Below are positions 1-29,104 of a stretch of 64,000 nt of DNA, piece by piece (within the stretch, counting starts at the first letter, position 1; the number at the start of each line of letters is the position of its first letter). The translations under genes and the position numbers were made by a program. The notes beneath the pieces are model-generated. The model was not told where the DNA came from. It worked only from the letters and a program-made list of their open reading frames with translations, and did no database searches. The stretch comes from Chloroflexota bacterium (GTDB lineage: Bacteria; Chloroflexota; Dehalococcoidia; SM23-28-2; RBG-16-64-32): positions 2,549 through 66,548 of the forward strand of contig JBBISJ010000010.1 in NCBI GenBank assembly GCA_037441345.1, read 5' to 3'.

Positions 1-1522
1 CGGCCACCTTCAGCACCTCGTCCGCGCGGCCGAGCAGCCAGAAATAGCCGTCCTCGTCCTTCGTCGCGTAGTCGCCGGCGTCGTAGAGGCCGGGGAGCCG
101 CTCCCAGTACGCGCGGCGGTAACGTTCGGGGTCGCCGTGGATGCCGGCGAGCATGCCCGGCCACGGGCCGCGGATTGCGAGGATGCCCTTCTCCCCGGCC
201 GGCAACTCCCGGCCCTCTTCGTTCACGACGAGCGCCTGTACGCCGGGCATCGGCAGGCCGGCGCAGCCGGGCTTCTGAGCCACCGGCTCGATCCCGGGCG
301 AGGCGCCGATCATGAAGCTGCCGGTCTCCGTCTGCCACCAGGTGTCGACGATCTGGCAGCGTCCGCCGCCGACGTTGCGGTGATACCAGTTCCAGGCCTC
401 GGGGTTGATCGGCTCCCCCACCGAGCCCAGCAGTTCCAGGCTGGACAGGTCGTGCCGCTGCAGCCACTCCTCGCCGTGCCCCATGAACATCCGGATGGCC
501 GTGGGCGACGTGTAGAGCACGTTCACGCCGTACTTCTCGATGATGCCCCACCAGCGGTCGAGGGCGGGGTAGTCCGGGGCACCCTCGTACATGACGACAG
601 TGGCGCCGTGCATGAGCGGCCCGTAGACGATGGCGGTGTGGCCGGTCACCCAGCCGATATCGGCCGTGCACCAGTACACGGAATCGTCGCGCAGCGGAAA
701 CGCCCAGCCAAACGTCGAGTGCGTATAGACGAGGTAGCCACCGGTGTTGTGGACGATCCCCTTTGGCTTGCCCGTCGTGCCGGACGTATACAGGACAAAC
801 AGCGGGTCCGTCGCCTCCATCCGCTCCGGCTCTACCTGCCACCCGGCGCCGGGAAGCAGGTCGTCGAGGAAATGGTCTCGCGACTCCGTCATCCGGACAT
901 CGGATTGCGTACGGCGAACGACGACGACTGCCTGGAGGGAGGGGCACATGGAAGCAGCTTCGTCGGCGGTGGCCTTGAGCGGAATGACTTTCCCGCGCCG
1001 GTAACCGCCATCGGCCGTGACCAGCACCTTCACGCCCAGGTCGTTCACCCGGTCCGCCAGCGCCTTCGCGCTGAAGCCGGAGAAGACGACGTTGTGGACA
1101 GCGCCGATGCGGGCGCAGGCCAGCATGAAGCTGACCAGTTCCGGCACCATCGGAAGGTACAGGGCCACGGCATCGCCCCTGGAAACGCCCAGGTTGCGCA
1201 GGACGGACGCGTAGCGGTTCACGTCCCGGTAGAGATCGCTGTAGCTCAGAGTCCTGGCGTCGCCGGGCTCGCCCTCCCAATAAAGCGCGACCTTGTTGCG
1301 GCGCCAGGAGGAAACGTGCCGGCCCACGCAGAGGTGCGACGCATTGAGGCGACCGCCCGGGAACCAGCGCGCGAAGGGGGGATCCCAGTCCAGGACGCTG
1401 TCCCACGTCCGGTACCAGTCAAGCCACCCCGCCTCGCCGGCCCAGAAACGCTCCGGGTCGGACACGGAACGTGCGTAGGTGTCGTCGAACAGCGGATGGG
1501 GCGGCGGCCGGCCTTCGTTCAT
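1..1522 (-). CDS. acs: Acetyl-CoA synthetase (AMP-forming), 3' end outside window
   Basis: Not in ORF track. Manual minus-strand reading from ATG 1522 (GAGG upstream): MNEGRPPPHPLFDDTY...WFPGGRLNAS...MLACARIGAVHNVVFSGFS...WWQTETG...GDYATKDEDGYFWLLGRADEVLKVA. Confidence 0.92.
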   Translation of the reverse strand, partial: MNEGRPPPHPLFDDTYARSVSDPERFWAGEAGWLDWYRTWDSVLDWDPPFARWFPGGRLNASHLCVGRHVSSWRRNKVALYWEGEPGDARTLSYSDLYRDVNRYASVLRNLGVSRGDAVALYLPMVPELVSFMLACARIGAVHNVVFSGFSAKALADRVNDLGVKVLVTADGGYRRGKVIPLKATADEAASMCPSLQAVVVVRRTQSDVRMTESRDHFLDDLLPGAGWQVEPERMEATDPLFVLYTSGTTGKPKGIVHNTGGYLVYTHSTFGWAFPLRDDSVYWCTADIGWVTGHTAIVYGPLMHGATVVMYEGAPDYPALDRWWGIIEKYGVNVLYTSPTAIRMFMGHGEEWLQRHDLSSLELLGSVGEPINPEAWNWYHRNVGGGRCQIVDTWWQTETGSFMIGASPGIEPVAQKPGCAGLPMPGVQALVVNEEGRELPAGEKGILAIRGPWPGMLAGIHGDPERYRRAYWERLPGLYDAGDYATKDEDGYFWLLGRADEVLKVA

Positions 1523-1670
1523 GTCCTCTCTGCAGACAGTCCCAAGAAGGCAGCAGGGGCGTCAAGGGTCAGTGGGCGTTGATTTGGGGACGAGCGATCC
1601 CTTGATTGCCCCTCGCAATGGCAATCCGATACGATGCCCGTACAAAGCCCTAAACCTGTAAGGGGACAAG

Positions 1671-2690
1671 ATGAGCAGGCGTCTGAACGTAGCGGTCGTC
1701 GGTGCCACAGGGCTCGTCGGCCAGGAATTTCTGAAGATCGCGCACCAGCGCAACTTCCCGATCAAGGGGCTGCGCCTTCTGGCCTCGCACCGGTCGGCGG
1801 GCAAGAAGATCTCGTATCCGGACATGGGGGAGATCGAGGTGGAGGAGACGACGCCGCTGTCCTTCAAGGGCGTGGACCTGGCGTTCTTCTCGGCGACGAC
1901 AGAGGTATCGAAGGGCCTGATCCCGCCGGCGGTCAAGGCCGGGGCTATCTGCATCGACGACAGTTCGGCCTGGCGCATGGAGCCGGACGTGCCGCTGGTT
2001 GTGCCGGAGGTGAACGCGGGCGACCTGAAGGGGCACCGCGGCATCATCTCCATTCCCAACTGCCCGACGACGCCGCTGTGCCAGGTGCTATGGCCCGCGC
2101 ACAAGGTCAACCCGATTAACCGGGTGATCGTGGACACGTACCAGTCGGTGTCCGGCACAGGGACGGCGGCCATGCACGAACTGACCGAGCAGGCGCGGCA
2201 GGTCTTGAACGGGGACCACACGCAGCCGCACGTGTATCCGCACCAGATCGGCTTCAACCTGCTGCCACAGGTAGACGTGTTCCTGGGCAGCGGCTACACG
2301 AAGGAAGAATGGAAGGTCATCAACGAGACGCGGAAGATCCTGCACGAGCCGGAGCTGGCGATATCAGCCACGTGCGTGCGCGTACCCGTATACGTGGGGC
2401 ATTCCGAGGCGGTGCACGTCGAGTTCTCGAAGTCGATGTCGCCGGAGGAGTTCTACGCGATCGCCAAGGAAGCCCCCGGGGTGGTGGTGCAGGACGAGCC
2501 CTCGGTGAACCACTATCCAACGCCGTGGGCCTGCGCCGGCAAAGACGAGACGTTCGTGGGCCGGATCCGGCAGGACGCCTCGCACGTCAACGGCATCGCC
2601 TTCTGGCTGGTCAGCGACAACCTGCGCAAAGGCGCGGCGCTCAACGCGATCCAGATCGCGGAAGAGCTGCTGGAGCGGAACCTGATTTAA
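1671..2690 (+). CDS. asd: Aspartate-semialdehyde dehydrogenase
   Basis: VVGATGLVG, PLVVPEVN, PNC active site, TYQSVSG, SDNLRKGAALNAIQIAE. Confidence 0.97.
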   Translation: MSRRLNVAVVGATGLVGQEFLKIAHQRNFPIKGLRLLASHRSAGKKISYPDMGEIEVEETTPLSFKGVDLAFFSATTEVSKGLIPPAVKAGAICIDDSSAWRMEPDVPLVVPEVNAGDLKGHRGIISIPNCPTTPLCQVLWPAHKVNPINRVIVDTYQSVSGTGTAAMHELTEQARQVLNGDHTQPHVYPHQIGFNLLPQVDVFLGSGYTKEEWKVINETRKILHEPELAISATCVRVPVYVGHSEAVHVEFSKSMSPEEFYAIAKEAPGVVVQDEPSVNHYPTPWACAGKDETFVGRIRQDASHVNGIAFWLVSDNLRKGAALNAIQIAEELLERNLI

Positions 2691-2761
2691 GGTAAAGGGC
2701 TGCGCCTTTCAACATTTAAGGCGTTCCAGGCGGGTTGGCGTATCGGGAAACGCCCCGATTA

Positions 2762-2770
2762 TGGTAGAAT
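2762..2770 (+). promoter_or_regulatory. Extended -10 promoter element upstream of gyrB
   Basis: TGgTAGAAT about 85 nt upstream of the gyrB ATG. Confidence 0.55.
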
Positions 2771-2790
2771 ACAGATACGAGCAGATATGA

Positions 2791-4767
<1,977 letters not shown>

Positions 4768-15700: not shown

Positions 15701-16288
15701 ATGACGGTTGAGCTGTTCATGAACCGGCTACGGCGCCTCCTGCTGCTCGACGATTCGGTGTTCGACGAGATCAGGAACGATGTCGCGTTCACGCCCGCGT
15801 CCCTGGCGGCAGCGGCCGGTGCGGTGTTCCTGGCGGCGCTCGGGGCGTGGCTGTTCGGCGAAACGGTGCTGGACCGGGCACCGGACGGGTGGTTCGTCGA
15901 TACGGTGGTCCTCGGGAGTTTCTTTACGGCAATCCTGTTCGGAGCGGGCATGGCCGTGACGTACCTGCTGCTGGTCCAGTTGTTCCGGGTCGAGGACATC
16001 CCGGTGGATGACTACCTGCGCGTTACCCTGATCACTCACGCTCCTTATGCGCTCGGGCTGCTGGTGTTCGTGCCGGAGATCGGCTTCACGTTCGGGATTC
16101 TGTCTGTGCTGGGGACCCTCTTCTACACCATGTACGGCCTCGGAGCTTCGTTCCGCGACGTCAGCGGGACAGCCGCGCTGTTCTCTGTGCTGGCGGGAGC
16201 GTTGGTGTGGCTGCTGCTGATCCCGGTCATCTCCGACCCGGGGAGCGGATACGTGACCGGGGTCTTCGCGTACAGCTTGATCGACTAA
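15701..16288 (+). CDS. Multi-pass membrane protein (Yip1-like)
   Basis: GGAGG RBS, about five TM segments. Confidence 0.75.
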   Translation: MTVELFMNRLRRLLLLDDSVFDEIRNDVAFTPASLAAAAGAVFLAALGAWLFGETVLDRAPDGWFVDTVVLGSFFTAILFGAGMAVTYLLLVQLFRVEDIPVDDYLRVTLITHAPYALGLLVFVPEIGFTFGILSVLGTLFYTMYGLGASFRDVSGTAALFSVLAGALVWLLLIPVISDPGSGYVTGVFAYSLID

Positions 16289-16686
16289 GCGGTCTCGATC
16301 GGCTCTTCGCTGATCGCACCGTCGAGGATACGAAACGCGCGAACGACGGGCGCGGCGGGGTCCTTCGTCGAGACGAGAACGTAGTACGCTTCCGGCCAGA
16401 AGGCGAGGCGGACATCGGTCGGTGAGGGGTAGGCCTCGCTGGCCGTGTGCGAGTGGTAGATCGCGAGGAACTCCCAGTCGTTATCCGTACATTCGTTGTA
16501 GATGCGGAACAGGTCCCTGTCGTCCACCTTGTAGCGGTAGGGGCTGGCCTCGGCATTCTTCGCGCGGAAGAGCTTGACGGCCTCGCCGTTCGGCCCGGCG
16601 ATGATCCCGCAGCACTCGTTCGGCGCGTCCTCCAGGGCGTGCGCGACCATCTCCGCCAGGAACGACTCACGCAGCCGGAGGGCCAT
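16285..16686 (-). CDS. mec: JAMM/MPN metallopeptidase (Mec, CysO-cysteine peptidase-like)
   Basis: PNECCG, IYHSHTASEAYPSPTD (JAMM motif). Start at ATG 16686. Confidence 0.92.
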   Translation of the reverse strand: MALRLRESFLAEMVAHALEDAPNECCGIIAGPNGEAVKLFRAKNAEASPYRYKVDDRDLFRIYNECTDNDWEFLAIYHSHTASEAYPSPTDVRLAFWPEAYYVLVSTKDPAAPVVRAFRILDGAISEEPIETA

Positions 16687-17078
16687 TACGGTGACTCCAC
16701 CGGTACGACCGTGTCCGCCTGGATGAATACGCCGAAGCCGTCCTCGAAGTCGAAGGTGCCGGTTACCCGCGCGTACTTGTCTTTGAGCGCCGCGAGCTGG
16801 TTGCGGTCGTCCCAGCCGCGGATGATAACGGCGAAGTTGCCGTCGTCGGTGACCTGGTATTCGCCGTGCTCCTCGCTGAAAGTGACGCGGCCGGTGGTGG
16901 TGACGACCTTGCCCTTGAACTCGGCGATCCGTGTGGTGAGGTCGTGGATGGTAAGCTCCTGGACCGCCTCGGTCGGGCGGCCGCCGTCGTCCTTGATCAG
17001 GAAATAGGCGGCGAACACGAACGCTGCCAGGGCGAGGATGAAGCCGTACATCATGATCCGGCCGATCGCGCCTACCAC
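16686..17078 (-). CDS. Membrane-anchored hypothetical protein (possible OB-fold)
   Basis: N-terminal TM helix then a beta-rich domain; overlaps both neighbours. Confidence 0.7.
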   Translation of the reverse strand: MVGAIGRIMMYGFILALAAFVFAAYFLIKDDGGRPTEAVQELTIHDLTTRIAEFKGKVVTTTGRVTFSEEHGEYQVTDDGNFAVIIRGWDDRNQLAALKDKYARVTGTFDFEDGFGVFIQADTVVPVESP

Positions 17079-18010
17079 CAGATCTTCCCCTGCACTTCCT
17101 CGTGGGGCTGGCCCCAGTCCTTGGTCCAGAGCTCTGTCGAGAGGTATTTCCAGCCGCCGTCCGCCAGGAGCGCGACAACGTTCCCCTTTTCGATCCGCTC
17201 GGCGGCGCGGACGGCCACCTTGAGGACGGCGCCGGAGGAGATCCCGGCGAAGATCGCCTCCTTCTCCATGAGCTGCTTCGTCATGTTGAACGACGATACG
17301 GAATCGACGACGATGCGCCCGTCGAGAACGGACTCGTCAAGCACCGGGGGAATGAATCCCTCCTCAAGGGCGCGCAGCCCCTGGACCAGGTCCCCCGGGT
17401 GGGGGACGGCGGCGACTACTTTCACGTCCGGCAGGTGGTCCTTCAGATAGCGCCCCGTGCCGGTCAGTGTCCCGCCGGTGCCGAGACCGGCCACGAAGAC
17501 GTCCACCTGCGGGACGTCGCGCAGGATCTCCGGGCCGGTGGTCTCATAGTGGGCGCGCGGGTTGTTCTCGTTGCCGTACTGGTACGGCATGAAGTAGGCG
17601 TCTGGGTCTTCGGCCAGCATCTGCTGGGCCTTGAAGACAGCATCGTTGGTGCTCGTCGCGTTCTCTGCGTAGACGACGTCCGCGCCGAACGCCCGGAGAA
17701 GGGCCTCTCGTTCCGGTGTGACGTTGTCCGGCAGGACGCAGAGCAGCCGGTAACCTTTCGCCCGGCAGACCATCGCGAGGCTGATGCCTGTGTTGCCACT
17801 CGTGGGCTCGAGGACGACCTTGTCCGGCGTAAGCTCGCCGCTCTTCTCGGCGGCGTTGACCATAAACAAGGCGATACGGTCCTTGACGCTGCCGGTGGGG
17901 TTGAAGCCCTCCAGCTTGGCGTAGACGTTGACGTCAGGCGAGGGGCTGAGGTGGTTCAACCGGACGAGCGGGGTATTGCCGATGGTTTCGAGGATGGAGT
18001 TGCAGAGCAT
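17072..18010 (-). CDS. cysM: Cysteine synthase, CysM type (sulfur-carrier dependent O-phosphoserine sulfhydrylase-like)
   Basis: KLEGFNPTGSVKDR, PTSGNTG, GLGTGGT, ADGGWKYLS; adjacent to cysO-like and mec genes. Confidence 0.85.
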   Translation of the reverse strand: MLCNSILETIGNTPLVRLNHLSPSPDVNVYAKLEGFNPTGSVKDRIALFMVNAAEKSGELTPDKVVLEPTSGNTGISLAMVCRAKGYRLLCVLPDNVTPEREALLRAFGADVVYAENATSTNDAVFKAQQMLAEDPDAYFMPYQYGNENNPRAHYETTGPEILRDVPQVDVFVAGLGTGGTLTGTGRYLKDHLPDVKVVAAVPHPGDLVQGLRALEEGFIPPVLDESVLDGRIVVDSVSSFNMTKQLMEKEAIFAGISSGAVLKVAVRAAERIEKGNVVALLADGGWKYLSTELWTKDWGQPHEEVQGKIWW

Positions 18011-18025
18011 CAGTGGGCCTCTATC

Positions 18026-18051
18026 GGGCGGGCCTTGGGGCCCGCCCCTAC
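18026..18051. repeat. GTAG-type REP
   Basis: Minus strand GTAG-GGGCGGGCC-CCAA-GGCCCGCCC. Confidence 0.7.
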
Positions 18052-18065
18052 GACAACGACTCCGG

Positions 18066-18338
18066 CTAACCGCCCGCCAGGGCTGGCAACACCGACAGGA
18101 TGTCGCCGTCCTTCAGGCTGGTGTCGAGCTTCTCCAGGAAGCGGACGTCCTCGTCGTTGAGGTAGACGTTGACGAAGCGGTGGAGCTGGCCGTCCGTCAT
18201 CACCATGTCCTTGAAGCCGGGGTAGCGCCGGTCCACATCATCAAGTGCGTCGCGGACCGTGGCGCCGTCCGCCTTGACAGACTTCTGCCCGCCCAGCAGC
18301 TTCTGCATGTTCGCCGTCACCCGTACCTCTACAGCCAT
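18066..18338 (-). CDS. cysO: Ubiquitin-like sulfur carrier (CysO/MoaD/ThiS)
   Basis: FVNVYLNDEDVRF, C-terminal PALAGG. Confidence 0.88.
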   Translation of the reverse strand: MAVEVRVTANMQKLLGGQKSVKADGATVRDALDDVDRRYPGFKDMVMTDGQLHRFVNVYLNDEDVRFLEKLDTSLKDGDILSVLPALAGG

Positions 18339-18350
18339 TTCGTCCCCTTC

Positions 18351-19451
18351 CTAGGCGTTGTTCTCGTGGCCGCCCGGGAAGGGCGCGCCGCAGAAGCCTT
18401 CGTAGTCGATCAGTTCGGTGATTGTCGGCTCGTCGCCGCAGAGCGGGCACTTCGGATCGCGGCGGAGCTTGACGATCCGGAAGTCCATGGCGAGGGCGTC
18501 GACGAGGAGCAGGCGGCTGACGAGCGGCTCGCCGATGCCCAGGATCTGCTTCAGTGTCTCCGTCGCCTGGATGGAGCCCATGATGCCGGTGAGGGCGCCG
18601 AGGACGCCGGCTTCGGCGCAACTGGGTACCATTCCGGGCGGCGGCGGTGCTGGGAAGAGGCAGCGGTAGCAGCCCTGGCCGGGCACGAAGACGGTGGCCT
18701 GGCCGTCGAAGAGGAGGATGCTGCCGTCCACCAGAGTCTTGCCGCTCATGTAGCTGGCGTCGTTGACGAGGTAGCGCGTTGTGAAGTTGTCGGCGCCGTT
18801 GACCACGATGTCGTACTGGGCGATGAACTCCATCGCGTTGTCGGACGTGATCGGCGACTCGTGGACGACGACGTTGACGTCCGGGTTGTAGGCGTTGAGG
18901 GTCTCCTTTGCCGACTGGACCTTGGGCTTGCCCACGTCGTCGTTCTGGTGGAGGACCTGGCGCTGCAGATTCGAGAGATCGACGACGTCGAAGTCGACGA
19001 TGCCGATAGTGCCGACGCCGGCGAGGGCGAGGTATAGGGCCACCGGCCCGCCCAGGCCGCCGGCGCCGACGATCAGGACCTTCGCTTCCATCAGCTTCCG
19101 CTGACCGGCCGGTCCCACCTGCGGCATGATGATGTGCCGCGAGTAGCGGTCCACCTGCTCCGGGGTGAGGGCTGTAGCGCCGCCGGCGATCGCCGGGATA
19201 ACGGCCATCTCGTCGCCGTCGGCGACGGGCGTGGCCTTGCCCTGGAGGCTGTGGATCTCCTGGTTGTTCACGTAGATGTTGATGTGTCCTGGGATTTCGT
19301 CGCTGTCGTCGTAGATCATGTGGCGCAGCGCCGGATAGCTGTTGCCAAGCCCGTCCAGCACTTCGCCGACGGTGCTGCCTTCGGCCTTCAGGTACGTCTG
19401 GTTGCCGGTGAGCTTCCGGAAAGGTGTTGGTATGTAGACTGTAACCGCCAT
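18351..19451 (-). CDS. moeB: MoaD-like domain fused to MoeB/ThiF adenylyltransferase
   Basis: N-terminal Ubl domain ending AIAGG, then RYSRH, GAGGLG, DLSNLQRQ, CYRC, CPLC; no rhodanese domain. Confidence 0.92.
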   Translation of the reverse strand: MAVTVYIPTPFRKLTGNQTYLKAEGSTVGEVLDGLGNSYPALRHMIYDDSDEIPGHINIYVNNQEIHSLQGKATPVADGDEMAVIPAIAGGATALTPEQVDRYSRHIIMPQVGPAGQRKLMEAKVLIVGAGGLGGPVALYLALAGVGTIGIVDFDVVDLSNLQRQVLHQNDDVGKPKVQSAKETLNAYNPDVNVVVHESPITSDNAMEFIAQYDIVVNGADNFTTRYLVNDASYMSGKTLVDGSILLFDGQATVFVPGQGCYRCLFPAPPPPGMVPSCAEAGVLGALTGIMGSIQATETLKQILGIGEPLVSRLLLVDALAMDFRIVKLRRDPKCPLCGDEPTITELIDYEGFCGAPFPGGHENNA

Positions 19452-19497
19452 CGAGGTTCCTCCATTACGCCCGGCGGGCGTACCCGGCGCACGCATC

Positions 19498-20421
19498 CTA
19501 GGCCTCCATCTGCAAGTATCGCTCACCAGTGTCGCAGAGCACAGTCACCACGCGCTTGCCCTCGCCGAGGCGCTTCGCGACCTTGATCGACGCCCAGACG
19601 TTGGCGCCGGCGGAGATGCCGACCAGTAGACCTTCATCTCGGCAAAGGCGGCGGGACATGTCGATCGCGTCCTCGTCCGTGCAGGCGATGATCTCGTCAT
19701 AGACTTCGCGGTTCAGGATGCCGGGGACGAAGCTAGCGCCGATGCCCTGGATGGCATGGACGCCGGCGCGTCCTCCCTGGAGCACCGGACTGCGGGTCGG
19801 CTCGACGGCGACGATCAGTACGTCCTTGCCGAGCTCTTCGCGGAGCACTTCGCCGACGCCGGTGATCGTCCCGCCGGTGCCGACGCCGGCTACAAACGCG
19901 TCGATGCGGCCGTCTGTAGCGGCGAGGATCTCGCGCGCGGTGGCGCGGCGGTGGACATCCGGATTTGCCGGGTTCTCGAACTGCTGGCACATGAAGACGC
20001 GGTCCTTCTTGCCGCCGACCAGTTCCTGTGCCGCGTAGACAGCGCCGGTCATGCCTTCGATCGCCGGCGTGAGGACGACCTCCGCACCGTAGCGGGCCAG
20101 CAGGTCCCGGCGGGCGAGGCTCATGTCCTCCGGCATGGTGACGATGAGTTTGTAGCCCTTGACGGCGGCTACCATCGCGAGGCCGATACCGGTGTTGCCG
20201 CTCGTCGGCTCGACGATCGTGTCGCCCGGGGCCAGGCGGCCCTCACGCTCTGCGACTTCGATCATGTTAAGGGCGATGCGGTCCTTCACGCTGCCGGCCG
20301 GGTTGAGCGATTCCATCTTGCCGACGATTTCGGCGGACCCCGGCGGCACCACCCGGTTGAGCCGCACCATCGGCGTGCTACCGACCAGTTCCAGTACGTT
20401 ATCTGCAATCTTGTCTCGCAT
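19498..20421 (-). CDS. cysK: Cysteine synthase A
   Basis: NPAGSVKDR, EPTSGNTGIG, QQFENPAN, GVGTGGT, IQGIG, DTGERYL. Confidence 0.95.
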   Translation of the reverse strand: MRDKIADNVLELVGSTPMVRLNRVVPPGSAEIVGKMESLNPAGSVKDRIALNMIEVAEREGRLAPGDTIVEPTSGNTGIGLAMVAAVKGYKLIVTMPEDMSLARRDLLARYGAEVVLTPAIEGMTGAVYAAQELVGGKKDRVFMCQQFENPANPDVHRRATAREILAATDGRIDAFVAGVGTGGTITGVGEVLREELGKDVLIVAVEPTRSPVLQGGRAGVHAIQGIGASFVPGILNREVYDEIIACTDEDAIDMSRRLCRDEGLLVGISAGANVWASIKVAKRLGEGKRVVTVLCDTGERYLQMEA

Positions 20422-20931: not shown

Positions 20932-22044
20932 TCAGGCAAGGAAAAGCACCAGGGGCACGATGAAGATGGCGCCCATAAACAGGGCGAATCCGCGCCGGTT
21001 GTGCGTGATGTGGTTTGCCAGAGTGATGATGACGGCGGAATAGGGCTTGTAAAGGAAGATGAGGACGAGTAGCGATATCACCCCGCCGACGACCATCTGG
21101 GTGAACACGATCGTGAAAGCCCGCGGCGAGTCGAGCAACAACGCGGCGATCATAGTGTCCACCCATGTCGTGATGTTCGCGCCCATTACGTACGGGATGA
21201 TCGCGTTCCTCCGGATGTAGCCCTTCAGGGAAAGTGGTATGAGCAAGGTCAGCGAGATGGAAACGGACAGGGTGACGGCGGTAATCGCCGCCCCGAGGCT
21301 GAACATCGCCAGCGGGTGGTGAAGGGCATCCTTGATGCGCTCCATCCGCAGGCTGGGCTGCTCGAGGTTGGGTAGCGCCCGGTCAAAGACGGCGAACGCC
21401 GTGAGGAGCATCCCGACGCCCAGCACGAACACGACGAGCGTGGGGACGAGGTCCGCGATGCCGTCAACGATGGGGTCGTAGGCAGCGTCTACAAATGACG
21501 TGACGGCCCCGGGCGTGCCTAAGCGGACCGAGTCGAACCAGCCGGATTTGAGAATGACGATGCCGATGGGCAGGACGGGCAGCCAGAGCGTGAACGCCGT
21601 GAGGAGCGCGACAACGCCGATGTAGAGGCCGTCTGCACTCTTCTTGCGGGTCACCCAGAGAACGAAGCCGATGAAGAGCACGATGAAGGACGCACCCAGG
21701 CGGGAGCCGTTAATCATGGCGAACGCCTCGACGTCTGACGTTGTGCCGGAGGAGTAGAGGCTGAGCGAGATGGCGGCGACCGGGGAGCCGCTCATCACGA
21801 TGTAGGAGCCAAGCCAGCCGAATCCCAGGAGATTGACCACGCCGTCCGCGGAGAGGCCTTCGAGGATCGGCTTGAGACCCCTGGCACCAGCCTTCATCAG
21901 CTGGAGCGCCATGATGAAGATAAAGAGGCCGGCGGCGCTGTAGGCGACCCGCGTCCCGGCGCCGGCCAGGGTCTGCCAGCGCGGCCGGGGCAGATGGACG
22001 GGCGCGCCGGCTGTCATCACATCCCGCGCTTGCTCAGATTGCAT
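20932..22044 (-). CDS. SLC34/Na-Pi cotransporter-like membrane protein
   Basis: Two repeats with NGSRLG and MGANIT motifs; overlaps the end of sat. Confidence 0.75.
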
Positions 22045-23221
22045 GGTGCGGCGTCACCCGCTCCTGCATGGCGTCGATCAATACTTTCGCGACCTCGGGC
22101 CGCGAGAATTCCGGCGGCGGCGCGATGCCTCCTGTGAGCATCTCGCGCACCTGGGTGCCGGAGAGGCTGACCCGGTCTTCCGGTCCGTGGGGGCAGGTCT
22201 TGACGCTCGCCAGCTCGCCGCACTTCCTGCAAAAGAAGGAGTGCTCGAACATGAGGGGCGTAATGCCGAGCGCCTGAGGGTCGAATTCGTTGAAGATCAG
22301 CTGGGCGTCGAAGGTGCCGTAGTAGTTGCCGACGCCGGCGTGGTCACGCCCGACGATGAAGTGAGTGCAGCCGTAGTTCTTGCGGACGAGCGCGTGGAAG
22401 ATCGCCTCGCGCGGACCGGCGTAGCGCATGGCGGCGGGGTTGACGGAGAGGACGACTCGGTCGGACGGGTAATAGTTCTCGATCAGGACCTCGTAGCAAC
22501 GCATCCGGACGTCCGCTGGGATGTCGTCGGACTTGGTATCGCCGACGAGTGGGTGGAGCAGCAGGCCGTCCACGATCTCCATGGCGCACTTCTGGATGTA
22601 TTCGTGGGCGCGGTGCACCGGATTGCGGGTCTGGAAGCCGACGACGGTACGCCAGCCGCGGGCGGCGAACCCGGCGCGCGTCTGGGCAGGCGTCAGGCGG
22701 TACTCCGGGAAATCGTCATGGCGTGGCACCTGGAGCACCTTCAGCGGCCCGCCGAGGAGCACGTCTCCCTGGGCGTAGAGAGCGGCGACGCCAGGATGGG
22801 CCTCGTCGTCCGTGCGGTACACGCTGCGGGCCTCGTCGCGCTTGTCGTAAGGGAACTTCTCGCGCACCTCCATGACGGCGATGAGCGTCCCCTCATCGTC
22901 GGTCAGAACGACCTGGCCACCTTCTGTTATCCCCGCCGCTTCGTCCCCGGTGACGGCGAGGGTGATGGGCATGGACCACGGGACTCCGTTGGCGAGGTGC
23001 ATGTCCTGGACCACGGAGCGATAGTCGCCCCGGGTCATGAAGCCGTCGAGCGGGCTGTACCCGCCCACGGCGAGCAGCTCCACGTCCGACAGCGATCGCG
23101 AGTCCAGGGTCACGCGCTGCAGTCCGCTGGCTCGCTCCCGCAGCACCGCCGCCTCATCGCCGGTGGCAACGAGGTCTATGAGGCGTCCGCCGTGCGCGGG
23201 GATAGTTTCTCCGGTGGTCAT
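22034..23221 (-). CDS. sat: Sulfate adenylyltransferase
   Basis: [52 protein letters not shown]. Confidence 0.98.
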
Positions 23222-23302: not shown

Positions 23303-24025
23303 TTACTCGTGCAGGCCGCACTCCTTGTATTCAGGGTTTTCCCACCACCAGCGGCCCGCGCGGATGTCTTCGCCGGGCTTGATGGCGCGGGTGCAGGGCG
23401 CGCAGCCGATGCTCGGGTAGTTCTGGTCGTGGAGCTTGTTGTACGGGATCTTCTGCTCTTTGATGTACGCCCACACGTCGTCGTTCGTCCACTCGATCAG
23501 CGGGTTCACCTTGATGATCCCGTTGCCCTCGTCCCACTCGATGGCGGGAGTGTCGGTGCGGGTAACGGACTGGTCCTTGCGAAGGCCGGTCATCCAGGCG
23601 CGGGCGTCGGCGAGCGCGCGCTTGAGTGGCTGGACTTTGCGGATGGCGCAGCACTCCTTGCGGTTTTCCAGGCTGTCACGGAAGGAGAAGAACCCCTTTT
23701 CGCGGGTCAGCGCCTCGACCTTGTCGCGGTCGGGGAACATCACCTCGATCGGTACGTCCGGGTACTTGAAGCGGGTGGCCTCCATGACCTGGTATGTCTC
23801 GTCGTTCAGCCGGCCGGTGTCCAGCGTGAATACGCGGATATTCGGCGCGTTTTTCGCAATGATGTCCATGAGCACAACATCCTCGGCGCCGAAACTGTCG
23901 GCGAACTTGATATCGCGCCCGAACGTCTCGCCCGCCCAGCGGACGATCTCGTCCGCGGGCTTGAGGCCGAGTTCGCGGTTAAGCTCCTCGATGTCGGCCT
24001 CTGTGTACCTGACTGCTTCCTTCAC
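23303..24025 (-). CDS. cysH: APS reductase (CysH, Fe-S type)
   Basis: LDTG, CCAIRK, TGLR, YPSIGCAPCT, RAGRW, ECGLH. The CC...CxxC motif marks the [4Fe-4S] APS-reducing type. Confidence 0.95.
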   Translation of the reverse strand: MKEAVRYTEADIEELNRELGLKPADEIVRWAGETFGRDIKFADSFGAEDVVLMDIIAKNAPNIRVFTLDTGRLNDETYQVMEATRFKYPDVPIEVMFPDRDKVEALTREKGFFSFRDSLENRKECCAIRKVQPLKRALADARAWMTGLRKDQSVTRTDTPAIEWDEGNGIIKVNPLIEWTNDDVWAYIKEQKIPYNKLHDQNYPSIGCAPCTRAIKPGEDIRAGRWWWENPEYKECGLHE

Positions 24026-24061: not shown

Positions 24062-25879
24062 CTAGACGGCGCACTCGCCCTCGCCGCGGACGACTTCGAA
24101 CAGCTCTTCCTTGCCCCAGTCCATGTACATCTGGATGTCCTGGTGCACGGGGCCGACTTCCTTGAACTCGTCCAGCAACGTGTCGAGGTTCTTTGCGCCG
24201 ACGCGGTCCACGAAGGCGACGAACTCCTCGCCCTCGTTCCGGTTACTTACATAGTGGTCGATGAGCTTCTTAACGGCCAGCGGCGCGCGCTTTGACGGCA
24301 CGCGGGCAACGCGGGTCCCGAACTTGTCGCCGCCCACGTAGCCACCGCCGCCGAGGAAGATGTCGAAGCAGGGGATCGTGGCGCCGTTGGCGCTGAACGA
24401 CGAGCCCTGGAGACCGATGGCCGCCAGGTGGTGCTGGCCGCAGCCGTTGGGGCAGCCGCTTGCCTTGACGGTGATCTGCTGGACGAGCGGGTCGTCGTCG
24501 TAGCCCCAGCCGAAGGACGCCTCGCGGATCGCATAGCCGACGCCCTGGGACGACGTGATCCCCATCTTGCAGGAATCCGTGCCCGGGCAGCCGACGACAT
24601 CGGCCATGTGGCCCGCATCGGGGTCCCCGAGGCCAAGCGCCTTTAGTTCGGCGTGCAGCGCCGGCAGGGCTTCTTCGCGGACCCAGCGCAGGACCAGGTT
24701 CTGGTTCTGCTGGGTGCGGGCGTTGCCGCCGCTGAAGCGGCGCATGAGGCCGGCCAGGCCGCGGAACTGCTCCGGAGTGAGGTTGCCCAGTGGGACGGTG
24801 ACGGTCACGGCGCAGTGGCCGGCCTGGCGTTGGGGGACGACGTTCGTCGCGACCCAACGGTCGAAGCCCGGGCCCGGCCGATGGCCGTTCGGCGCCTCGC
24901 CGGGCGTTGGGCCCTCGGGGGCCAGCTGCGTCAGCGCGTCCATGTCCAGCGGCTCCCAGGCCCAGGGCTGGGCGAGTTCTTCGTCCACCTGGCGCCGAAA
25001 CTCCTCGATGCCGAGCTTCTGCACAAGGAACTTGACGCGCGCCTTGTTCATATTCTTGCGCAGGAAGTTGGCCAGGCCGCCCTCTTTGTCGAACACCTTC
25101 AGGCAGGCTTCGGCGACGCGGATGTACTGGCCGTCCTCCGCGGTGGCGAAGTCCCAGACTATATCGGCGACGCGGGGCATCGTGGATGTTCCGCCGCCAA
25201 CGACGATTGTGAAGCCACGGACTTCCTTGCGGCCTTCTTTCCGCACCTGGGCGATGAAGCCCATGTCGTGGAACGGTGTACCGGCGCAGTCGATAGGCCC
25301 ACAAGAGAAGGCAGTCTTCCACTTGCGCGGCATGTTCTGGCAGATGGGGTTGCGGATCATGTTCCGCGCGTACGCGGCGAGATACGGCGTGACGTCGAAC
25401 AGCTCGTGGTCGGAGACGCCGGCGTAGGGACAGCCGGTGACGTTGCGGACGGTGTGGCCGCAGGCCTCGCGGGTGGTCAGCCCGACGTCGGCGAGCATGT
25501 GCATCACTTCCTCGGCGGCGAGGAGATCCACGAAGTGGAACTGGATGTTCTCGCGGGTGGTGATGTGCCCGCGGCGCAGGCCGGAGTGGCGCTCGGCGAT
25601 TTCGCCCATCACGTCCATCTGCTCCGCGTTGATGCCGCCGTACGGGAGCTTGATGCGCATCATCTGCTGGTCCATCTGCCGCTGGCCGTACGTGCCCATG
25701 CGCAGGCGGAAGGGAGTAAACTCGCCCTCCAGCGCCTCCGGGTTCTCGCGGTAGCGGCGCGCTTCGATGGCGTAGTTCTCGATCTCCTCGTCAAGCGTGA
25801 CGAAGACGTGGCCTGGCTTGAGGTCTGACGGAACCTTAGGGTGCGCCTTGAAGGTGGAGGGCCTTTCCTGGATGGTCAA
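24062..25879 (-). CDS. sir: Ferredoxin-dependent sulfite reductase (siroheme)
   Basis: HITTRENIQ, GCPGTDSC, SGCPNGCGQH siroheme/Fe-S ligands; heads cysH-sat. Confidence 0.92.
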   Translation of the reverse strand: MTIQERPSTFKAHPKVPSDLKPGHVFVTLDEEIENYAIEARRYRENPEALEGEFTPFRLRMGTYGQRQMDQQMMRIKLPYGGINAEQMDVMGEIAERHSGLRRGHITTRENIQFHFVDLLAAEEVMHMLADVGLTTREACGHTVRNVTGCPYAGVSDHELFDVTPYLAAYARNMIRNPICQNMPRKWKTAFSCGPIDCAGTPFHDMGFIAQVRKEGRKEVRGFTIVVGGGTSTMPRVADIVWDFATAEDGQYIRVAEACLKVFDKEGGLANFLRKNMNKARVKFLVQKLGIEEFRRQVDEELAQPWAWEPLDMDALTQLAPEGPTPGEAPNGHRPGPGFDRWVATNVVPQRQAGHCAVTVTVPLGNLTPEQFRGLAGLMRRFSGGNARTQQNQNLVLRWVREEALPALHAELKALGLGDPDAGHMADVVGCPGTDSCKMGITSSQGVGYAIREASFGWGYDDDPLVQQITVKASGCPNGCGQHHLAAIGLQGSSFSANGATIPCFDIFLGGGGYVGGDKFGTRVARVPSKRAPLAVKKLIDHYVSNRNEGEEFVAFVDRVGAKNLDTLLDEFKEVGPVHQDIQMYMDWGKEELFEVVRGEGECAV

Positions 25880-25919
25880 AGTGATCCCCGTTTCCAGAGC
25901 AGTTCGATGGATAATCGAT

Positions 25920-25970
25920 ATTGTCGGTCTGGTAAGTCGGAATTATAGGCGGAAAGCCGGCCGCCTGTCA
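25920..25970 (-). promoter_or_regulatory. Sigma70 promoter plus Rrf2-type operator of the sir operon
   Basis: Minus strand TTGACA-N18-TATAAT (25970-25941), overlapped by ATTGTCGGTCTGGTAAGTCGGAATT (plus strand, 25920-25944). Confidence 0.8.
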
Positions 25971-25996
25971 AACGCAATCAGGGCCGGGCACCGCAA

Positions 25997-26227
25997 CTAC
26001 TCGGTGGCCGGTAGGCTCCTGAGCGCGCGTCCGAGGTCCTGAAGGAAATCGAAGGGAACGTCCACGGCGGAGCCGGCGCCGTCCTGGAGCCGGACGGCCG
26101 TGTCCAGGAGCGGCCCCAGCCGATCCGCGAAGTCCGGGAAACGGGTGAGCACGACGTGGATGCTCTCCCCCTCCTCGATAAGGGCGAGGCTGCGTTCGAG
26201 GATAAGCGCCAGGGCCGGGTCTTCCAA
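25997..26227 (-). CDS. Small hypothetical protein (Chloroflexi-type helical domain)
   Basis: LERSLALIEEGES...RFPDFADRLGPLL pattern; TTG start after GGAAGG. Confidence 0.55.
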   Translation of the reverse strand: MEDPALALILERSLALIEEGESIHVVLTRFPDFADRLGPLLDTAVRLQDGAGSAVDVPFDFLQDLGRALRSLPATE

Positions 26228-26347
26228 ACGGGTGCCCTTCCCGCCTTCAGGCCTGTGATGGCCCAATTATCTCGCTGCCCGACACGCCGTCAAGGCGTAC
26301 GGACTCGCGGAAATGTTCAGCGTTGTCTCGGCCCGGTCGTTTCGCGA

Positions 26348-26623
26348 CTACCCGCCGGCGACTGCCGGCACGATGCTGACCTCGGCGTTCTCGGTGAGGC
26401 GTGTGCCGACGCCGTCCTGGAAACGGACGTCCTCGCCGTTGACGTAGACGTTCACGAAGCGTCGTAGCTCGCCGGTCTCGTCGCAGAGCCGCTCCTTCAG
26501 GCCGGGGAACTGCTTCTCCAGGCTGTCGATCATCTGCTGCAGGGTGTCGCCGGACCCCTGGACGATGTCCTTCTCCTGTGTCAGCTTCCGGAGCGGGGTA
26601 GGTATGCGTACTGTTATCGGCAT
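26348..26623 (-). CDS. Ubiquitin-like sulfur carrier (MoaD/ThiS)
   Basis: VRIPTPLR, RRFVNVYVNGEDVRF, C-terminal PAVAGG. Confidence 0.92.
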   Translation of the reverse strand: MPITVRIPTPLRKLTQEKDIVQGSGDTLQQMIDSLEKQFPGLKERLCDETGELRRFVNVYVNGEDVRFQDGVGTRLTENAEVSIVPAVAGG

Positions 26624-26635
26624 CGATGATCTCCT

Positions 26636-27007
26636 CTAGCTCTCAACCCTGTGCCACCACTCGCGGAGTTCGTAGCACCGATTGTCATTATCCATGCGAA
26701 TAGCGAAGACGCCATCAAGTTCCACTTTCACGCCGGATGGCACCCTCTCGAACGACGCGTTCCAGCGCGCCAGTCCCGTATCTCCCACGGCGCCGTAGAT
26801 CTCGCAGTGAAACCGGATGTTCCGCTGAGCCACTGAGGCGTCTCCAGCGTAGGCCGCGATCTGATCCCGGCCTACCATCGGCTCGTCGAACGGCGTCTCG
26901 TAGTACCGGGCATCCTCCGTGTACATGTGGGGGATGGCGGATCCATCGCCCGACTCCCACATGTGCCTGTAGGCGTCGAGCCATTTCGTGAACGCGGCCT
27001 CGTCCAT
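26636..27007 (-). CDS. SnoaL/NTF2-like protein
   Basis: WLDAY...YTEDARY...PMVGRDQI...CYELREWW. Confidence 0.85.
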   Translation of the reverse strand: MDEAAFTKWLDAYRHMWESGDGSAIPHMYTEDARYYETPFDEPMVGRDQIAAYAGDASVAQRNIRFHCEIYGAVGDTGLARWNASFERVPSGVKVELDGVFAIRMDNDNRCYELREWWHRVES

Positions 27008-27013
27008 GCCGCG

Positions 27014-27256
27014 CTAGCCCTCGACGACGTCTTCGTAGACCGGGTCGACGCGGACGCCGTTGTCGCGGACCCAGTCCAGTCCGCGCTCAATTTCGTCGCG
27101 GTCGCCTTCCAGTTCGAGTATCACCCAGCCGCGCTCATCGCTAACGTCCGCGCGGCGGATATTGGTGATAACGTCGAACTGCTTTGCGAGCTTCCAGATG
27201 ATGGGTTCTTTGATCAACTCTTCGACGAAGGTGAACTTCACTCGTTGCCTTGCCAT
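27014..27256 (-). CDS. Stand-alone NIL domain protein
   Basis: EPIIWKL...TNIRRADV...GWVILELEG. Confidence 0.85.
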   Translation of the reverse strand: MARQRVKFTFVEELIKEPIIWKLAKQFDVITNIRRADVSDERGWVILELEGDRDEIERGLDWVRDNGVRVDPVYEDVVEG

Positions 27257-27268
27257 TGCTCCATCCCC

Positions 27269-28522
27269 TTATCCGGCCTGACCGGCGAGCGCGGCGGCGC
27301 GCCCGGACAGCGCCTCTTCAAATGACTCGATCGTTGGGCTCACGTGGAGGGCGGGCTTAAGTGCGGGCGCCACCGCCTCCTGGGTCTTGAGTCCAGCGCC
27401 GGTGATGAATGCCACCACCACCTCGTCCGGGTGGACGTGCCCGTCCTCTACCATGCGCCGTAGCCCGGAGACGACTACGCCTCCCGCGGTCTCAGCGAAG
27501 ATGCCCTCGGTCTCGGCCAGGAGCTTGATGCCGTCCACGACTTCGTCATCGGTTACGGCGGTCGCGCCGCCGTTGGTGTCGGCCATCGTCTTCAGGGCGT
27601 AGTATCCATCGGCCGGGTTGCCGATGGCCAGGGACTTGGCGATGGTGTCCGGCTTCTGAGGGCGGATATTGAAGCTGTGGCGGCCCCAGGCCTCGGCGAT
27701 CGGCGAGCAGCCCAGCGCCTGGGCGCCGCTCATCCGTGTGCCCGTCCACTCGACCAGGCCGAGCCAGGCGAGCTCCTTGATGCCCTTGTAGATCTTGGTG
27801 AAGAGCGAACCGCTGGCGAGGGGGACGATGCAGTGGTCCGGCGCGCGCCAGCCGAGCTGCTCGCACACTTCGTAGCCCAGGGTCTTGCTTCCCTCCGCGT
27901 AGTACGGACGGACGTTGATATTGACGAACGCCCATGGGTACTTATCGCCCAGCTCGCTGCAGAGGCGGTTCACGTCGTCGTAGCTGCCGTCGACGCCGAC
28001 GAGAGTCGGCCCGTACACGGCCGAGCCGATCACCTTCCCCTGCTCCAGGTCGGCCGGGATGAACACGCAGGCGCGCATTCCGGCGCGGGCGGCGTGAGCG
28101 GAGACGCTGTTGGCCAGGTTGCCCGTGGAGGCGCAGGCGAGCGTATCGAACTCGAACCCGCGCGCCACGCTGCTGGCGACTGAGACGACGCGGTCCTTGA
28201 AGGACCAGGTGGGGTTCTGGCAGTCGTTCTTGATGTACAGGCGGTTGAGGCCGAGCGCGCGGCCGAGGTTGCCGGCCCGGATGAGCGGCGTGTAGCCGGT
28301 GCCGATGTCGATCGCGGTTTCGGCGTCGCAGGGAAGCAGGTCCGCGTAGCGCCACATCGTCGGCGGGCCGGCCTCGATGGAGTCACGGCTGATGCGGCTC
28401 TTGATCGCTGCGTAGTCGTAGACGACTTCCAGCGGGCCGAAACAGAATTCGCAGACGTTACTCGGCGTCAGTCCGTATTGGTGGCCGCATTCGCGGCATC
28501 TGAGGTTCCTGGCGAATGACAC
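27269..28522 (-). CDS. Threonine synthase-family PLP enzyme (probable O-phosphohomoserine sulfur-transfer enzyme)
   Basis: CRECG...CEFCFGPL, NPTWSFKDR, CASTGN, EGSKT, ITGAGLKT; lies under a SAM-I riboswitch. Confidence 0.9.
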   Translation of the reverse strand: MSFARNLRCRECGHQYGLTPSNVCEFCFGPLEVVYDYAAIKSRISRDSIEAGPPTMWRYADLLPCDAETAIDIGTGYTPLIRAGNLGRALGLNRLYIKNDCQNPTWSFKDRVVSVASSVARGFEFDTLACASTGNLANSVSAHAARAGMRACVFIPADLEQGKVIGSAVYGPTLVGVDGSYDDVNRLCSELGDKYPWAFVNINVRPYYAEGSKTLGYEVCEQLGWRAPDHCIVPLASGSLFTKIYKGIKELAWLGLVEWTGTRMSGAQALGCSPIAEAWGRHSFNIRPQKPDTIAKSLAIGNPADGYYALKTMADTNGGATAVTDDEVVDGIKLLAETEGIFAETAGGVVVSGLRRMVEDGHVHPDEVVVAFITGAGLKTQEAVAPALKPALHVSPTIESFEEALSGRAAALAGQAG

Positions 28523-28637
28523 GATGGTTATCCCCTGTCTTGAGAGCGGGATCGATGTTGGAGCATGGGCCTCGCTACCGTCAGGCGGAGGCCCCCGTCA
28601 TCGCCATTCGCGCAGTTGCTGTTTTGCTCATTAAATG

Positions 28638-28664
28638 AAAAACCCCTTCTGTGCCAGAAGAGGT
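28638..28664 (-). terminator. Riboswitch expression-platform terminator
   Basis: Minus strand ACCTCTTCTG-GCA-CAGAAGGGGT-TTTT. Confidence 0.8.
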
Positions 28665-28672
28665 CCGTGTTG

Positions 28673-28774
28673 CCTTATCGTTCCCCCGTCTGGGGGCCGG
28701 CATTGGCACCGCTGTCCACCTGGACCGGTTGCCGGGTTTCACAGGGCCGTCGCCCTCCACCTCTCTGGATAAGG
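28673..28774 (-). ncRNA. SAM-I (S-box) riboswitch
   Basis: Minus strand CTTATCCAGAGAGGTGGAGGGCGACGGCCCTGTGAAACCCGGCAACC...GGTGCCAATGCC...GATAAG matches the SAM-I consensus with P1 pairing. Confidence 0.95.
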
Positions 28775-28796
28775 ATCTATTCGATTTATGAATGGG

Positions 28797-28825
28797 ATGC
28801 TAGCAGGCAGATAGACAGATGTCAA
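28797..28825 (-). promoter_or_regulatory. Sigma70 promoter of the SAM riboswitch leader
   Basis: Minus strand TTGACA-N17-TAGCAT with TG extension. Confidence 0.8.
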
Positions 28826-29104
28826 CTCGATTCCCCAATGACCCATTGACAAGATTGCAATTGGGGCGCAGTATTGTTGCGCGTCCAAGAAGGGGGTACC
28901 GCCATGCTGTTCTTCGGTTTCGGCTCGCGTCTGGCCCGGCTTTCTGTCCGGGCGACACTCTTCGTTCTCTCTTCAGCGGTTATTGTGTTGTCCGCCAAGC
29001 GGCACTGCACCCTCCGGCCCGGTGCCCAGCGGTAATGGGTCAGCGGCACAGGGGATTGGGAACCTCAGCACCGTCCCTACCGTCTGAAGAGTGAAGGATG
29101 TGGG

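Follow-up and report, generated by a model that had tools for sequence, protein, structure and literature searches.

In the CysO/CysM/Mec/MoeZ system of Mycobacterium tuberculosis, an enzyme dependent on pyridoxal phosphate (PLP) acts on a phosphorylated hydroxy-amino acid with a protein thiocarboxylate, and MoeZ carries a rhodanese domain. The MetM/MetO route of Streptomyces albulus, which makes homocysteine from O-phosphohomoserine, reportedly goes back to Hasebe et al. 2024 (Appl Environ Microbiol 90:e0124724). Table 2 of PMC13759103 and Appendix 4 of its preprint list S. albulus MetO, MoeZ, Mec and MetM with credit to that work, and according to both documents the system uses a MetO-thiocarboxylate. 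The preprint, which deals with GapMind, states that MetM "is often misannotated" as threonine synthase, and PMC12172450 mentions an S-adenosylmethionine (SAM) riboswitch upstream of S. albulus metM as well as homologues in cyanobacteria. Here we analysed a 64,000-nucleotide (nt) stretch of contig JBBISJ010000010.1 of a Chloroflexota bacterium (the window), taken from contig C10 of a 2.69-Mb assembly that is 97.3% complete. An operon in this window, built around a homologue of threonine synthase (ThrC), very probably directs SAM-repressed homocysteine synthesis of the MetM/MetO type. We favour this reading because no other homocysteine route was found in the genome, because the enzyme falls in one clade with its Streptomyces-type counterparts, and because the order of riboswitch, enzyme and carrier is the same in both. 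The original prediction, made from the DNA letters, had pointed to a Streptomyces route from O-phosphohomoserine with a ThrC homologue and a carrier; this route is real and is cited in PMC13759103, its preprint and PMC12172450. Since it is already in print, the core of the operon is known and not new. The same holds for the pathway's riboswitch and for the misannotation, while a conserved NIL partner, a leader with Met codons and a fusion of carrier and E1 activating enzyme were not found in the searchable literature.

All the elements of the operon lie on the minus strand. A sigma-70-like promoter (28797..28825; TTGACA, 17 nt, TAGCAT) has a TG-extended -10 element and 10 of 12 consensus matches; the surrounding region 25900-29000 contains 3 promoter-like sites versus 0.6 expected. 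It is followed by a SAM-I aptamer (28672..28775) that matches RF00162 over its full length (model positions 1-108 of 108) with 77.8 bits, for a gathering score of 44.4 and an E of 1.4e-16. The intrinsic terminator of the riboswitch expression platform (28633..28666), a hairpin with a 12-bp stem (28666-28640), a loop of 3 and a U tract, begins 6 nt past the aptamer. Four genes come after a short leader open reading frame (ORF): the ThrC-like enzyme, a candidate MetM-type homocysteine synthase of 417 residues (27269..28522; PF00291, 228.5 bits), a stand-alone NIL protein of 80 residues (27014..27256; PF09383, 60.2 bits, cut-off 24), a SnoaL_2/NTF2-like protein of 123 residues (26636..27007; PF12680, 49.9 bits, cut-off 27) and a MetO-type ThiS/MoaD carrier of 91 residues (26348..26623; PF02597, 64.4 bits; NF041918 (SAMP1), 68.8 bits versus 60). 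The gaps between them measure 12, 6 and 12 nt, and the four genes therefore form one operon. Promoter, aptamer, terminator, ThrC-like enzyme, NIL, SnoaL-like protein and GG-ended carrier had all been proposed beforehand, and each was found in its place on this strand.

The locus resembles that of S. albulus in having a SAM-I riboswitch upstream of a ThrC-homologous enzyme and then a ThiS/MoaD carrier ending in GG, and the genome also contains a ThiF-type E1 and a JAB protease. It differs by a NIL gene between enzyme and carrier, a Met-codon leader, an E1 that is fused to a carrier domain of its own and lacks rhodanese, a carrier that requires no C-terminal trimming, a SnoaL-like passenger, and the position of the operon inside a 12-kb sulfur-assimilation cluster. 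The M. tuberculosis CysO system is alike in that a PLP enzyme uses a protein thiocarboxylate on a phosphorylated hydroxy-amino acid; there the substrate is O-phosphoserine and a CysM-fold enzyme performs a beta-replacement, whereas the operon would achieve a gamma-replacement with a ThrC-fold enzyme.

The operon enzyme scores 267 bits on TIGR00260, whose cut-off is 167, and is matched by solved ThrC chains (E 1.6e-59). Its Ser107-Phe108-Lys109-Asp110-Arg111 (SFKDR) motif, in which Lys109 is the catalytic PLP lysine, is invariant in 21 orthologues, and over the aligned MetM, ThrC and type-3 sequences the conservation of S107, F108, K109 and R111 is 97% or more. We built a maximum-likelihood tree of 71 rows (IQ-TREE, LG+G4, quick search), in which long branches meet at the deep joins. 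The operon enzyme belongs to a clade of 55 rows (SH-aLRT 100) together with the Streptomyces-type enzymes and sequences from cyanobacteria, Acidimicrobiia, Nitrospirota, Elusimicrobia and one Aquificaceae row, and a separate clade (SH-aLRT 100) holds the genome's own ThrC and nine ordinary ThrCs. We counted as clade-specific those positions that are at least 95% conserved in the MetM clade and differ from a ThrC residue that is itself at least 80% conserved. Forty positions set the two apart, including a rebuilt segment N203-x-R205-P-Y-Y208-A-E-G-S212 (NxRPYYAEGSKT) and an N-terminal ribbon of four cysteines (C9, C12, C24, C27) that is missing from ThrC. A third type of ThrC-like paralogue is the sister of the MetM clade in the tree. 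It occurs in other Dehalococcoidia (loci L186-L191) and is absent from the genome studied here; it has the N-terminal Cys ribbon and is 31-36% identical to the operon enzyme. Distant database relatives bear C-terminal LeuA-allosteric or PadR domains and one has an N-terminal ThiF (P0251, P0265, P0203, P0230, P0261, P0234). We set these LeuA, PadR and ThiF fusions, found in proteins 35-49% identical to the query, aside as evidence for the operon enzyme.

The distribution of the enzyme was followed in 121 genomes of the class, the source genome (G000) included. The search gave a bimodal result: 90 of the 121 have a full-length orthologue (57-100% identity) and 4 more have fragments, while ordinary ThrC appears at 35-41% identity with alignments beginning only at about residue 50. 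The 27 genomes without the orthologue are mostly small ones. Occurrence in Chloroflexota, which had been put forward as a new element, is instead the rule in this class. The source names of near-identical proteins indicate a Dehalococcoidia or Chloroflexota metagenome-assembled genome. A match at E 1e-90 or better was also obtained in 138 of 301 sampled Actinomycetota genomes, or 128 of 291 once ten unpublished genomes are removed. Six Streptomyces-type loci, taken from genomes of 7.7-9.9 Mb and 70% GC, each contain a SAM-I riboswitch (76-81 bits), the orthologue and a carrier of 91-92 residues. For one of these proteins, to which the operon enzyme is 57% identical, the best 120 database relatives are 82-93% identical; the named ones among these 120 are all "threonine synthase" of Streptomyces or Kitasatospora. 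Closer to the operon, 14 of 20 related loci have a SAM-I aptamer 5' of the orthologue.

The genome has the enzymes expected around O-phosphohomoserine but no canonical way from homoserine to homocysteine. A separate thrC of 358 residues on contig C4 reaches 314.9 bits on the ThrC model against 267 for the operon enzyme, and a homoserine kinase gene (thrB, 222 bits) exceeds its cut-off. In this 97.3% complete genome, MetA/HTS gave no match, MetX gave only weak alpha/beta-hydrolase matches of at most 25 bits, the best match to MetB/Y/Z-type (Cys_Met_Meta_PP) enzymes was partial (29.7 bits) and corresponds to no real member, and the COG1900/HcyBio route and MetH were not found. The view that the operon "thrC" is not the housekeeping threonine synthase thus stands, a better-scoring gene being present on another contig, and the search for a second thrC and for metA/metX, metB and metY returned the former and none of the latter. 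The refuting conditions set beforehand, a sole thrC and a complete canonical Met pathway, thus do not hold in this genome. Two short MetE-type genes consisting of the catalytic domain only lie in tandem on C6 (8667-10663); they score 279 and 105 bits on the MetE model, so that only the first scores well, and the better one reaches 375 bits on NF003317, whose cut-off is 406. The genome contains two SAM-I aptamers in total. The second (82.6 bits; contig C20, locus L015, about 1501-3108) precedes methionine-salvage genes of the IF-2B/MtnA and MTA-phosphorylase types.

These components can be arranged into a putative pathway. ThrB would supply O-phosphohomoserine, as in the published pathway, and MetM would eliminate phosphate on PLP, after which the C-terminal thiocarboxylate of MetO would add at the gamma carbon, for which CysM/CysO offers a precedent. 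Homocysteine would be freed by thioester hydrolysis, or by an S-to-N shift and then the JAB protease. The original prediction had Mec releasing it, whereas the GapMind preprint of PMC13759103 gives Mec a role in maturing MetO. The carrier of the operon has its stop codon directly after the GG of its C-terminus (...SIVPAVAGG). About half of its orthologues continue for 1-6 residues past the invariant GG (A, NR, Q, SA, TA, R, PNPLSL) and would therefore need trimming. At one Chloroflexota locus that lacks NIL, the carrier gene has a T-box leader (104 bits) just 3' of it (L076 7116-7542). MetO would be adenylated by the ThiF-family E1 of the same cluster (18351..19526, minus strand; ThiF, 282 bits), presumed to be its activator; this E1 is single in the genome, and so is the strong JAB domain, both being inside the window. 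The E1 has an N-terminal ThiS-like domain, whose terminal ...VIPAIAGG immediately precedes the ThiF domain; the true start of the E1 is probably the ATG at codon 26. The JAB/Mec-type protease gene (about 16285-16701, minus strand; 82 bits, the best JAB domain of the genome) encodes an enzyme that could also release a third carrier from the E1 fusion. The sulfur of MetO would derive from the adjacent sulfate-reduction genes, and the short MetE-type enzyme would methylate homocysteine to methionine.

Several points weigh against this reading of the operon. No rhodanese domain was found in the E1 (18351-19526), unlike in MoeZ, which bears on the sulfur donor to MetO. Orthology of the enzyme to the characterised Streptomyces type is suggested by Streptomyces-wide relatives and by synteny, not by the S. 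albulus sequence. In PMC12172450, a cyanobacterial orthologue was not a full MetM in vivo and had threonine-related activities, the Microcystis orthologue showing weak threonine synthesis and deaminase activity; membership in the family is therefore no guarantee of function. Two other functions were weighed. The enzyme could be a direct O-phosphohomoserine sulfhydrylase using free sulfide, with a carrier that is optional or serves another enzyme, as would suit the sulfite reductase gene and the rest of sulfate reduction directly downstream, the E1 devoid of rhodanese, and the unidentified product peak obtained when sulfide was tried with the cyanobacterial orthologue (PMC12172450). We consider this improbable, since the carrier adjoins the enzyme in 27 of 29 other Dehalococcoidia loci, both misses being at contig ends, as well as in nearly all cyanobacterial and Nitrospirota loci and in 6/6 Streptomyces-type loci, since its SIVPAVAGG tail is invariant among the aligned orthologues, and since the published system, according to PMC13759103 and its preprint, works with the MetO-thiocarboxylate. 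A second, SAM-regulated threonine synthase or a threonine-metabolising isozyme would agree with the TIGR00260 score well above its cut-off, with the source names of the relatives, every one observed being "threonine synthase", and with the Microcystis activities (PMC12172450). It is nevertheless the least probable of the functions considered: the same genome has a better ThrC, the enzyme sits in a clade of its own with its 40 specific positions, it is linked to a sulfur carrier and to a SAM riboswitch control that it has in common with methionine salvage, and without it no homocysteine route is found. MetM/MetO homocysteine synthesis thus remains the reading that we retain for the operon.

The NIL gene is a conserved addition to this core. 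By tblastn, NIL directly follows the enzyme in 29/29 other Dehalococcoidia loci. A local profile scan of the 80 best named genome loci gave two arrangements with an adjacent NIL: enzyme-NIL-carrier in 21 of 30 Chloroflexota loci, and enzyme-carrier-NIL in 3/3 Nitrospirota loci and the one Elusimicrobia locus. NIL lies 3.7 kb downstream in one of 5 loci from Acidimicrobiia or other Actinomycetota; the scan detected none in 36 cyanobacterial loci, and there was none within 4 kb at the six Streptomyces-type loci. The gene at 27014-27256 encodes the only NIL domain of its genome. The protein contains no Cys and consists of a conserved core and a conserved GDVVEG tail. The original prediction had presented NIL and SnoaL together as new additions; the NIL part held, being real, conserved and apparently undescribed, and the SnoaL part did not, as that protein is not part of the system (see below). 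No literature linking NIL to the MetM/MetO carrier system was found among the matches listed in full-text searches, the original MetM paper and the GapMind supplements excepted.

The C2 (NIL) domain of E. coli MetN (PDB 3dhw, 3tui; PMC6233128) offers a comparison, as it belongs to the same Pfam family. Residues 7-71 of NIL align with MetN 270-338, which places N32 opposite N295, and N32 is at least 90% conserved in 21 NIL sequences; in direct comparison, MetN chains match only weakly (E 0.045). In PMC6233128, MetN N295 is required for L-methionine binding and trans-inhibition, and with N295A the binding falls to undetectable. Methionine binding by NIL may be proposed by analogy, from this aligned Asn and the MetN biochemistry. 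The present NIL differs from MetN in being stand-alone, with 80 residues and no ABC ATPase, and a NIL of the MetN type is absent from the genome. Another non-canonical route to homocysteine, that of methanogens and Desulfovibrio (DUF39/COG1900 with NIL-ferredoxin; Methanosarcina MA1821/MA1822), also needs a NIL-containing protein, according to PMC5764234, and is thus alike in recruiting NIL for homocysteine synthesis. Its starting compound is aspartate semialdehyde, and the NIL used there is joined to a ferredoxin domain (PMC5764234), whereas our genome has no HcyBio domain and its NIL has no Cys.

A short leader ORF of 16 codons (MSKTATARMAMTGASA; 28581..28631, minus strand) begins just past the terminator U tract, stops 58 nt short of metM and contains two Met codons with one codon between them (28607-28599). 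In the 300 nt upstream of the enzyme at 60 Chloroflexota loci, ATGNNNATG was present on the sense strand of 22 regions and on the antisense strand of 3, and 20 of the 22 sense-strand sites were located at -73 to -148; mononucleotide shuffles averaged 2.3 and never exceeded 8, and other AUG spacings stayed at background (2-5/60). The middle codon of the motif is variable (GCG, GTC, GTG, ATC, TTC), and the ORF around the motif always comes to its stop codon ahead of metM. The motif is present in 6/6 loci lacking the aptamer and in 6/14 that have it. In the minimum-free-energy fold of the leader (z -3.0), the Met codons pair with the metM start region, and at the 20 loci with the motif at -73 to -148 the duplex energy averages -19.7 kcal/mol, compared with -14.0 for shuffled leaders and -13.0 for other upstream 24-mers. 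Two types of leader pair with two different targets. Attenuation by leader peptides has precedents in the trp, his and thr leaders and in ermC. The present leader shares with them a short ORF enriched in codons of the end product, in an RNA that pairs with the downstream control region; it differs by having two regulatory codons, no second terminator, and a pairing with the start region stacked behind a riboswitch.

From these elements, control of the operon may be drawn in three layers. At high SAM, transcription would terminate at the riboswitch, which is the established mechanism of this family and for which the parts are present here. A ribosome stalled at the leader Met codons for want of Met-tRNA would then free the metM start, the leader acting as an ermC-like translational attenuator that reads the Met-tRNA supply, with putative translation; we give this role of the leader nearly even chances. 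As a third layer, the NIL protein would be an accessory subunit resembling a methionine sensor, by which flux at the O-phosphohomoserine branch point would be adjusted; the aligned residues suggest this role, which we put forward tentatively, as somewhat short of an even bet, and with which the feedback subunit of the original prediction stays plausible. The wider proposal, in which MetM is gated in several phyla by a stand-alone NIL with methionine (or else homocysteine or SAM) as its ligand, joining the riboswitch and the leader in Chloroflexota, is rather doubtful.

The roles given to NIL and to the leader have to face facts that count against them, and other explanations exist for both. 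Nine of the 30 Chloroflexota loci lack NIL, no NIL domain was found anywhere in the 5 NIL-less Chloroflexota genomes searched, and the NIL-less enzymes nest among the NIL-bearing ones in the tree; from these loci and genomes it follows that NIL is not needed for catalysis. Judged by gene content, NIL is a recurrent third gene, linked in two gene orders and dispensable. Instead of sensing methionine, it could be a docking or hand-off factor, either one that brings MetO to MetM in preference to the CysO-like carrier or one that retains the homocysteinyl product. The presence of several similar carriers in the genome (MetO, CysO-like and E1-fused) would give such a factor a purpose, NIL adjoins the carrier and not the enzyme in Nitrospirota and Elusimicrobia, and the COG1900 route also needs a NIL-containing protein (PMC5764234). 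A search for longer NIL proteins returned 2. One is a NIL-carrier read-through protein of 188 residues, which could speak for docking but comes from a single 1.4-kb contig and resembles a translated intergenic spacer; the other, a NIL-Omp85 protein, was discarded because it is probably a chimera of the assembly. Among Atlas clusters, the 30 nearest consist of NIL alone, and fusions were not confirmed among close relatives of the operon NIL. Moreover, NIL retains the methionine-binding Asn of MetN, and cyanobacteria and Streptomyces run the system without NIL. We regard docking as unlikely, though worth keeping in view. A complex prediction for MetM, MetO and NIL in which NIL was scored gave 0.02 and 0.08 for a mark of 0.32, was run without controls and has no bearing on binding. 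As for the leader, the M-x-M element is found in just 22 of the 60 loci, these loci are mutually related so that the statistics overstate independence, and the AUG...AUG could be selected for pairing alone. The element could then be an untranslated RNA, the anti-start strand of the riboswitch expression platform: among the signals that could be measured, the pairing with the start region is the strongest, the flanking peptide is poorly conserved, and the starts and lengths of the ORF vary. Yet both AUGs are kept, always 3 nt apart, though the paired target differs between the two types, other spacings do not rise above background, the motif is always in an ORF that stops before metM, and it is present at every riboswitch-less locus (6/6). 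An RNA-only role is accordingly a serious candidate that we place below the midpoint.

The SnoaL-like gene is, on comparative grounds, a passenger that was inserted between NIL and metO in this particular genome. No counterpart exists in 29 related loci, the one hit across 110 loci is the gene itself, and at a threshold of E 1e-5 none of the 120 other class genomes has it, for which reasons it was rejected as a member of the pathway. The closest operons, with enzymes 83% and 81% identical, run straight from NIL to the carrier. The protein matches the profile of its family and is a generic NTF2-like protein whose linkage to the operon is not conserved.

Downstream on the same strand come, in order, genes for a sulfite reductase, an APS/PAPS reductase, an ATP sulfurylase, a Na/Pi-cotransporter-like protein, an Rrf2 regulator, a CysK and the E1, and after the E1 a 90-residue carrier, a CysM-family enzyme, a 130-residue ORF and the JAB protease. 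The sulfate-reduction genes, for sulfite/nitrite reductase (24062-25879), APS/PAPS reductase (23303-24025) and ATP sulfurylase (22034-23221), are the likely source of sulfide. The sulfite reductase gene has its own promoter, a perfect TTGACA-18-TATAAT at 25971-25942 (minus strand) just 5' of it. A second promoter-like site (26266-26293, minus strand) is found 5' of an 89-residue ORF (26266-25997), which matched no family and is without an equivalent in 29 related loci. A membrane protein of 370 residues (20932-22044, minus strand) with a weak Na/Pi-cotransporter match adjoins the ATP sulfurylase and is a possible importer of sulfate or thiosulfate. The CysO-like carrier (18066-18338, minus strand; 90 residues) is the second stand-alone carrier of the window and is followed by the gene for the CysM/CysK-family enzyme (17072-18010, minus strand); an ORF of 130 residues without assigned family (16686-17078, minus strand) separates the CysM-family gene from the JAB gene. 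Carrier, CysM-family enzyme and JAB protease (16285-18338) are probably a copy of the CysO/CysM system.

The "threonine synthase" labels make genomes like this one seem methionine auxotrophs. Recognising the MetM/MetO route restores a complete methionine pathway to most of the sampled Dehalococcoidia (90/121) and to many Actinomycetota (138/301). The NIL protein and the leader ORF provide leads on the partitioning of O-phosphohomoserine between the threonine and methionine branches, and NIL is present in two unrelated homocysteine routes. If the proposed functions are true, one operon would respond to SAM, to charged tRNA-Met and to free methionine through three sensors stacked upon it, and the NIL domain would be tied to homocysteine synthesis in both the MetM/MetO and the COG1900 routes.

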